Notes under the pieces: model-generated | What the model was told of the DNA's origin: nothing | Database searches by the model: none | Seen by the model: only the letters and a program-made list of their open reading frames with translations | Translations under genes and position numbers: made by a program | NCBI RefSeq assembly: GCF_003334765.1 | Contig: NZ_QOWT01000142.1 | DNA from: Escherichia coli | Lineage (GTDB): Bacteria > Pseudomonadota > Gammaproteobacteria > Enterobacterales > Enterobacteriaceae | Length of the DNA stretch: 326 bases | Reading direction: 5' to 3' (one strand) | Shown here: piece by piece, positions 1 through 326 of the stretch | Numbering within the stretch: the first letter of the stretch is position 1 | How the letters are laid out: the number at the start of each line of letters is the position of its first letter

Positions 1-59
1 ATGTATAAGCAATAAAAAACAGCTTCAGGTAATAAGGAATATCTCAATTTTTAAACATA

Positions 60-326
60 AAATGCGAATTATTTAGTACAAAAAGCAGGGAAAGATTACG
101 AAAGCCCGCTCCCCGCAAGGACTGACGCGAGATAGTTTCTATCCATGGCTGCTTTTCGCATCTTACGTCTTAACCCTGCCTTGAATACCTTATCATTCGT
201 TAAAATATTAATAGCGATGTGCCGTATCCCTGAAAATAATTCTGCGGCGTTTCCTCTTCTTATTTTGCAGTCGTCTTCATTCATTACCACGTCCAGACGC
301 CAGTGCAGCTTATTCTCCACGTGCCA
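60..326 (-). mobile_element. Right-hand (transposase 3') end of an ISAs1-family insertion sequence; outer boundary unresolved, element continues past position 326
   Basis: ISAs1-family elements are about 1.2-1.4 kb with a single transposase ORF and short terminal inverted repeats, so the element end should lie a short distance past the stop codon, somewhere within 1-95. The start coordinate of 60 is a placeholder, not a measured boundary. The inverted repeat cannot be identified without the opposite end. Confidence 0.45.
96..326 (-). CDS. ISAs1-family transposase (H-repeat-associated protein), C-terminal fragment; 5' end lies beyond the window
   Basis: The six-frame track gives a 74-aa minus-strand ORF at 96..320 ending in a TAA stop (plus 96-98 'tta'). 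By my own translation the frame stays open through 321-326 (His, Trp), so the N-terminus is outside the window. The sequence [15 protein letters not shown]…[27 protein letters not shown] is recognised from memory as the C-terminal tail of enterobacterial ISAs1-family transposases (E. coli paralogs such as YhhI/YdcC/YbfD); no database search was run, and I cannot tell which paralog or host this is. Confidence 0.85.

Follow-up and report, generated by a model that had tools for sequence, protein, structure and literature searches.

The DNA analyzed here, called the window below, is a 326-nucleotide stretch that corresponds at 100% identity to the reverse complement of positions 737731-738056 of the Escherichia coli K-12 MG1655 chromosome (NC_000913.3). 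Its MG1655 counterpart comprises the 3′ end of ybfL (b0705) and most of the spacer up to ybfD (b0706), downstream of rhsC, and the annotated gene order is rhsC-ybfB-ybfO-ybfC-ybfQ-ybfL-ybfD-ybgA-phr. In the annotated context of eight genomes, the junction locus contained in the window sits downstream of rhsC and orphan tips and upstream of ybgA-phr. An earlier sequence-only reading had associated the window with Rhs elements, and the rhsC-ybfB-ybfO-ybfC-ybfQ-ybfL-ybfD locus bears this out. It had also mentioned O-antigen clusters as a context of H-repeats, which is supported by a remnant in a Salmonella O-antigen cluster, for which yhhI served as the reference H-repeat (PMC3715488). Accessory cargo was suspected just outside the window. 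On the side of base 1, the flanking DNA is the rest of the ybfD copy, followed by ybgA and phr; Rhs orphan toxin/immunity modules do occur, on the 326 side only and beyond the rest of the insertion sequence.

The window was also 100% identical to many other E. coli chromosomes, where the annotation reads ISAs1 family transposase. A place covering at least 80% of the window was found in 2,219 of 5,426 complete E. coli genomes, and some match to it was present in 5,252 of the 5,426; the median number of matching places per genome was 7, and nearly all of these places were chromosomal. The element is nearly absent from plasmids (25 of 72,556 records), and several of the plasmid records bearing ISEc1 are 0.7-4.9 Mb in size and look like misfiled chromosomes or chromosome fragments.

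Hill and co-workers reportedly characterized the H-repeat of the RhsC element in the early 1990s, and H-rptC2/ybfL and H-rptC3/ybfD of the K-12 RhsC element were reportedly described by Zhao et al. (1993, J Bacteriol 175:2799). ISfinder lists the RhsC H-repeat as ISEc1. The window is identical in sequence to the region of H-rptC2/ybfL (b0705) and H-rptC3/ybfD (b0706), with zero difference from K-12, and the gene order downstream of rhsC matches as well. The element, the locus and the family are already known; the window is an ordinary part of the E. coli RhsC locus and, as a textbook component of this locus in K-12, carries little weight alone. The window matched strain ATCC 8739, which has an intact gene (WP_000420797.1), equally well, so a K-12 origin is not required. 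Its sequence is the same in strains in which the gene at the ybfL position is intact and in strains in which it is dead, and cannot distinguish the two. H-repeats have been counted as insertion sequences although their transposition was not observed (PMC3032704).

Transposase tail and element ends

The coding part of the window consists of the last 76 codons of an ISEc1/H-repeat transposase at the ybfL position (residues 303-378 of 378), which occupy bases 99-326 of the minus strand and are cut by the window edge at 326. The minus-strand frame is open from 326 to 99 and is closed by a TAA stop codon at 98-96. This assignment is based on translation, a family profile, 100% identity to annotated genes and mostly synonymous divergence from paralogues. 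A stop-free run at least as long as the observed one occurred in 237 of 2000 shuffles of the window; ORF length alone is therefore weak evidence, and homology is decisive. Two other predictions were rejected: the GTG start listed at 320 by the ORF program is artefactual, the gene being cut by the window edge, and a 24-codon minus-strand ORF at 44-118 is spurious, being unsupported and overlapping both the insertion sequence end and the adjacent leader.

The NCBIfam model NF033564 (ISAs1 family transposase) matched the tail with E=1.6e-15 and 57.1 bits, aligning tail residues 1-42 (bases 201-326, minus strand) with profile positions 273-314 of 314. The score is below the model cut-off of 70 bits because just 42 of the 314 profile positions are covered by the window fragment. 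The sequence-only reading had assigned bases 96-326 to the C-terminus of an ISAs1-family transposase and had expected this profile for the 76-residue tail; both points were confirmed, and its coordinates were exact for the ORF plus stop. The aligned residues form the C-terminal block of the DDE transposase domain, and Pfam DDE_Tnp_1 gave a weak match to them (E=0.0097, model positions 161-200 of 200). Past base 326, the window continues in ATCC 8739 into the intact 378-codon gene WP_000420797.1, whose product scored 418.3 bits (E=1.8e-125) against NF033564, for which the cut-off is 70. This protein contains DDE_Tnp_1_assoc (PF13808) at residues 8-94 (E=1.5e-33) and DDE_Tnp_1 (PF01609) at residues 102-343 (E=8.9e-31), of which the last 41 residues are held by the window. 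This agrees with the ISAs1-type DDE transposase that had been anticipated for the extended gene. Its anticipated length of about 380 residues agrees with the 378 codons of ATCC 8739; K-12-type genomes depart from it in that they carry a TAG at codon 18.

Within the last block of the DDE_Tnp_1 model, Glu306 (GAG codon at bases 315-317, minus strand), located in the motif HWHVEN, is a candidate for, and likely represents, the third catalytic acidic residue, an assignment that draws on general features of IS4-like DDE transposases. A sequence search of solved structures with the full-length protein returned chance-level matches only (E>1), with no solved relative among them.

Comparison with other chromosomal copies supports real coding sequence. 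The window tail differed from yhhI by 6 synonymous and 0 non-synonymous codons and from ydcC by 8 synonymous codons and 1 non-synonymous codon, and in the gene comparison of ybfL with yhhI, 31 synonymous and 9 non-synonymous codons were counted. Differences among these paralogues are mostly synonymous, implying that the protein was under purifying selection while the copies diverged.

To set the limits of the element, two independent copies were compared together with their flanks, one located next to rhsB (the yhhI element) and one next to rhsE (the ydcC element). The homology shared by the yhhI, ydcC and ybfL copies has sharp limits, which define an ISEc1 unit of 1291 bp that starts with CAGGGAAAGATC and ends with AATCTTGCCCTG. 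The ybfL copy is full length, and its 18-bp ends are complementary at 16 of 18 positions (89%). In the window, homology stops at base 86, where the terminus reads CAGGGAAAGATTACGAAA on the plus strand; the element thus extends 10 bp past the ORF and stop. Bases 86-103 are the right arm of the terminal inverted repeat of this full-length copy, so that the stop codon (96-98) and the last two transposase codons lie inside the repeat. The sequence-only reading had taken the window to mark an insertion sequence edge, and we found that this edge lies inside the window at base 86.

Members of the ISAs1 family generate target duplications of 8-10 bp. The family prototype is ISAs1 of Aeromonas salmonicida, and IS1358 sits in the rfb regions of Vibrio cholerae. 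ISEc1 shares with this family the profile, the domain architecture, the compact one-ORF organization, the inverted repeats and the target duplication (see below). With 1291 bp, its unit falls in the compact size range of about 1.2-1.5 kb; it holds a single ORF, and its short inverted repeats are imperfect. ISEc1 resembles ISAs1 and IS1358 in belonging to the NF033564 family and in having a single ORF in ~1.3 kb, short inverted repeats and a target duplication within 8-10 bp; unlike them, it is an E. coli lineage tied to Rhs loci.

The 85/86 junction

The remaining part of the window also belongs to ISEc1. Bases 1-85 (minus strand; GC 23.5%) are 96-98% identical to independent ISEc1 copies over positions 25-109 of the unit and run into the transposase fragment of ybfD, whose ATG is located 36 bases past window base 1. 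They represent the 5′ untranslated leader of a second, defective copy, which is referred to here as the outer copy, as opposed to the inner, full-length copy that ends at base 86. Positions 25-913 of the yhhI element align from the 85/86 junction outward into the ybfD copy, again at 96-98% identity; the ybfD copy has an internal deletion of positions 914-1224 and keeps its own right end. The view that the window contains nothing except an insertion sequence tail is incomplete with regard to bases 1-85. A permissive Rfam scan of both strands of the window gave no match, and the folded leader of the outer copy had no more structure than shuffled sequence (z = +0.26). A consensus scan of the window for promoters and terminators yielded 0 sites of either kind, which leaves a junction promoter or terminator unsupported.

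The arrangement of the two copies is best seen in ATCC 8739. The order there is outer positions 1-34, inner positions 1-1291, outer positions 25-913 and, after the deletion, outer positions 1225-1291. In reverse-complement coordinates of the locus extract, the 34-bp fragment occupies 2918-2951, the inner copy 2952-4241 and the outer copy from position 25 onward 4242-5195. The inner copy is directly preceded by CAGGGAAAGATCATCAGAAGTTCACTTTTTGTAC, which equals positions 1-34 of the outer copy, and is flanked on both sides by the perfect 10-mer CTTTTTGTAC. In the window, the right-hand copy of this target-site duplication lies at bases 76-85, where it reads CTTTTTGTAC on the minus strand and corresponds to outer-copy positions 25-34, as identified by comparison with ATCC 8739. 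When the inner copy and one 10-mer were removed in silico, an uninterrupted left end was restored, in which 108 of 110 bases were identical to the yhhI element. We saw no sign that the 34-bp fragment and 10-bp repeat of the ATCC 8739 type are assembly artefacts or are missing in other lineages carrying the junction.

Two unrelated ISEc1 copies are likewise flanked by perfect 10-bp duplications, one in strain 2014C-3307 (GGTAGGAGGC) and the other in strain 0-4 (GGGTTTATAA), which shows that ISEc1 inserts in such a way. Copies B, E and C2 of K-12 showed no target duplication, a finding compatible with subsequent rearrangement. Retention in ATCC 8739 of both the outer 34 bp and the 10-bp duplication is the signature of insertion, not of deletion, and identifies the window as the right-hand junction of a nested transposition. 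On the basis of identity, boundaries, inverted repeats, duplication and population distribution, all observed here, we are highly confident that the window is the right-hand junction of an ISEc1 copy whose transposition target was the 5′ leader of another ISEc1 already resident downstream of rhsC. Judging from these alignments, the ybfL-ybfD spacer is an IS-in-IS junction, and neither an edge between an insertion sequence and host DNA nor a plain intergenic region.

Different origins of the junction were considered. An edge of the insertion sequence against non-IS host or accessory DNA was implicit in the first description of bases 1-95, and the sharp drop of GC content across 85/86, from 46% to 23.5% in bases 1-85, would fit such an edge; however, the low GC is a property of the ISEc1 leader itself. 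Bases 1-85 had no better alignment to non-IS chromosomal sequence than to ISEc1 leaders, and their match to ISEc1 positions 25-109, leading into ybfD, refutes this explanation, to which we assign practically no probability. The junction could also derive from a head-to-tail dimer, produced by tandem duplication or left over as an (IS)2 intermediate, with subsequent deletion of 24 bp from the abutted IRR-IRL junction. K-12 alone, which shows three tandem copies with the downstream one devoid of its left inverted repeat, could be read in this way, and a similar junction without the left repeat exists at RhsE in O121 strains. What speaks against a dimer is that ATCC 8739 keeps the apparently missing 34 bp upstream of the inner copy together with the 10-bp duplication; moreover, the copies differ by 5-6% and are thus not recent duplicates of each other. 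We regard a dimer origin as very improbable.

A further question is whether the transposase of H-repeats at Rhs loci has been domesticated for a host role, for example in shuffling Rhs toxin/immunity cassettes, instead of being the product of a selfish insertion sequence. Several features of its distribution are in line with domestication, including copies in 5,252 of 5,426 genomes (median 7 places, nearly all chromosomal), the presence of Rhs loci next to copies in every case inspected, mostly synonymous divergence and rarity on plasmids (matches in 25 records out of 72,556, with several of the 25 as large as a chromosome). Nevertheless, the copy in the window is a pseudogene in 6 of 8 sampled loci, and ISEc1 copies have retained their inverted repeats and generate target duplications, as ordinary insertion sequences do, which makes a domesticated function very unlikely.

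A nested transposition could have proceeded as follows. Transposase would bind the two CAGGG...CCCTG ends and cut there, and the cut ends would then be joined to a target cut with a 10-bp stagger. Where the target was the leader of another copy, the left inverted repeat of this outer copy would be parted from its gene, and the resulting junction would afterwards be passed on vertically at a fixed chromosomal site. As predicted from its intact 378-codon gene and both ends, the inner copy of the ATCC 8739 type is potentially mobile.

History of the K-12 form

The gene at the ybfL position was intact in 2 of 8 inspected loci (ATCC 8739 and HCM-25C-3), and the codon-18 TAG was present in the other 6 (MG1655, 720632, L73, W5-6, FORC 064 and H9Ecoli). 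In K-12, this nonsense codon results from C52T. We compared the K-12 gene (locus extract 6096-7232) with that of ATCC 8739 (locus extract 4096-5232) and found 25 differing sites, all within the first 564 nt, whereas the last 573 nt were identical; the nonsense codon falls within the divergent part. The pattern, judged from the placement of these sites, is that of a recombination mosaic.

The two forms also differ upstream. At its left end, the K-12 form carries another variant, CAGGGAAAGATCACGTAACG, and it is devoid of the 34-bp fragment of the outer copy. Upstream of the inner copy, ATCC 8739 has an RHS fragment as well as DUF6258 and NTF2-fold immunity genes, all of which are absent from K-12. 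In addition, a 380-bp left-end fragment, ybfQ, is present in K-12 at the ybfC side. FORC 064 carries the pseudogene of the K-12 type and no ybfQ fragment (reverse-complement coordinate 752 of the locus extract); the left end of its copy adjoins the flank (…gcgttccatttg) that precedes ybfQ in K-12 on the ybfC side. The ybfQ fragment may have been either gained in K-12-like strains or lost in FORC 064.

As reconstructed from the eight loci, the K-12 form is most simply read as a product of homologous recombination, in which a copy located downstream of ybfC would have replaced the left part of the nested inner copy. Along with outer-copy positions 1-34, the same event would have deleted the orphan Rhs fragment, as well as the DUF6258 and NTF2-fold immunity genes.

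Adjoining ISEc1 copies

Several other loci contain ISEc1 copies next to each other. In O121 strain GTVSS-020 (locus extract 1784-4196), two intact ISEc1 transposase genes are found in tandem at RhsE, and the right end of one copy is joined to position 16 of the next, …CTTGCCCTG being followed directly by AGGAGTTCAC…. No matching duplication was seen upstream of this tandem. The same junction between a right end and position 16 recurs in many O121, O103 and other strains.

Strain 0-4 (locus extract 1770-5523) has three ISEc1 copies in a row beside an RHS core gene. The first has the duplication GGGTTTATAA, left-end fragments (CAGGGAGAGATTATCGTG, CAGGGAAAGATC) are stacked in a 72-bp spacer, a full copy is immediately preceded by a left-end fragment of 12 bp, and the exact right end of the second copy is joined to position 192 of the third. 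In 2014C-3307 (locus extract 3061-4371), a full ISEc1 copy has the perfect 10-bp duplication GGTAGGAGGC, and its target began at the base next to the right end of a resident copy with an internal deletion. At K-12 RhsE (locus extract 6587-7672), the ydcC element begins 32 bp past the point at which yncI is annotated to end. The yncI gene is a distantly related pseudogene of the ISAs1 family (about 67% identity at the DNA level), apparently with a truncation close to its 3′ end. Here, too, family members adjoin, and no duplication was seen at this site.

ISEc1 copies repeatedly adjoin in such a manner that one exact terminus is joined to the end region of a neighbour. Insertions into the left end of another copy were detected at positions 12, 16 and 25-34, and also immediately outside a right end; in the window, the inner copy is joined at position 25-34 of its neighbour. 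Across this handful of loci, the adjoining copies provide hints of self-end targeting. It is conceivable, though we hold this only tentatively, that ISEc1 moved repeatedly in natural E. coli with 10-bp duplication and may prefer to insert within ~35 bp of the termini of resident copies, or at the base just outside, building the nested and tandem arrays of Rhs loci.

IS30 and IS21-type elements target their own ends, with (IS)2 dimers. ISEc1 is similar to them in that its copies inserted at positions 12, 16 and 25-34 of left ends or just outside a right end. In contrast to these elements, no intact abutted IRR-IRL junction of ISEc1 was found in a search with a synthetic 120-mer, the nearest sequences having spacers of at least 10 bp or left-end truncations; the resemblance, known from sequence junctions, is a lead only.

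For annotation, the ybfL-ybfD spacer should be treated as an IS-in-IS junction and not as intergenic DNA. The nested form of the ATCC 8739 type, with its perfect duplication, offers a candidate active ISEc1 copy as well as footprints for questions about H-repeat mobility and reshuffling of Rhs cassettes. If copies of ISEc1 do target each other's ends, the 85/86 junction of the window would be one such self-targeted event, and self-end targeting would provide a first clue, from behaviour, to how elements of the ISAs1 family work.
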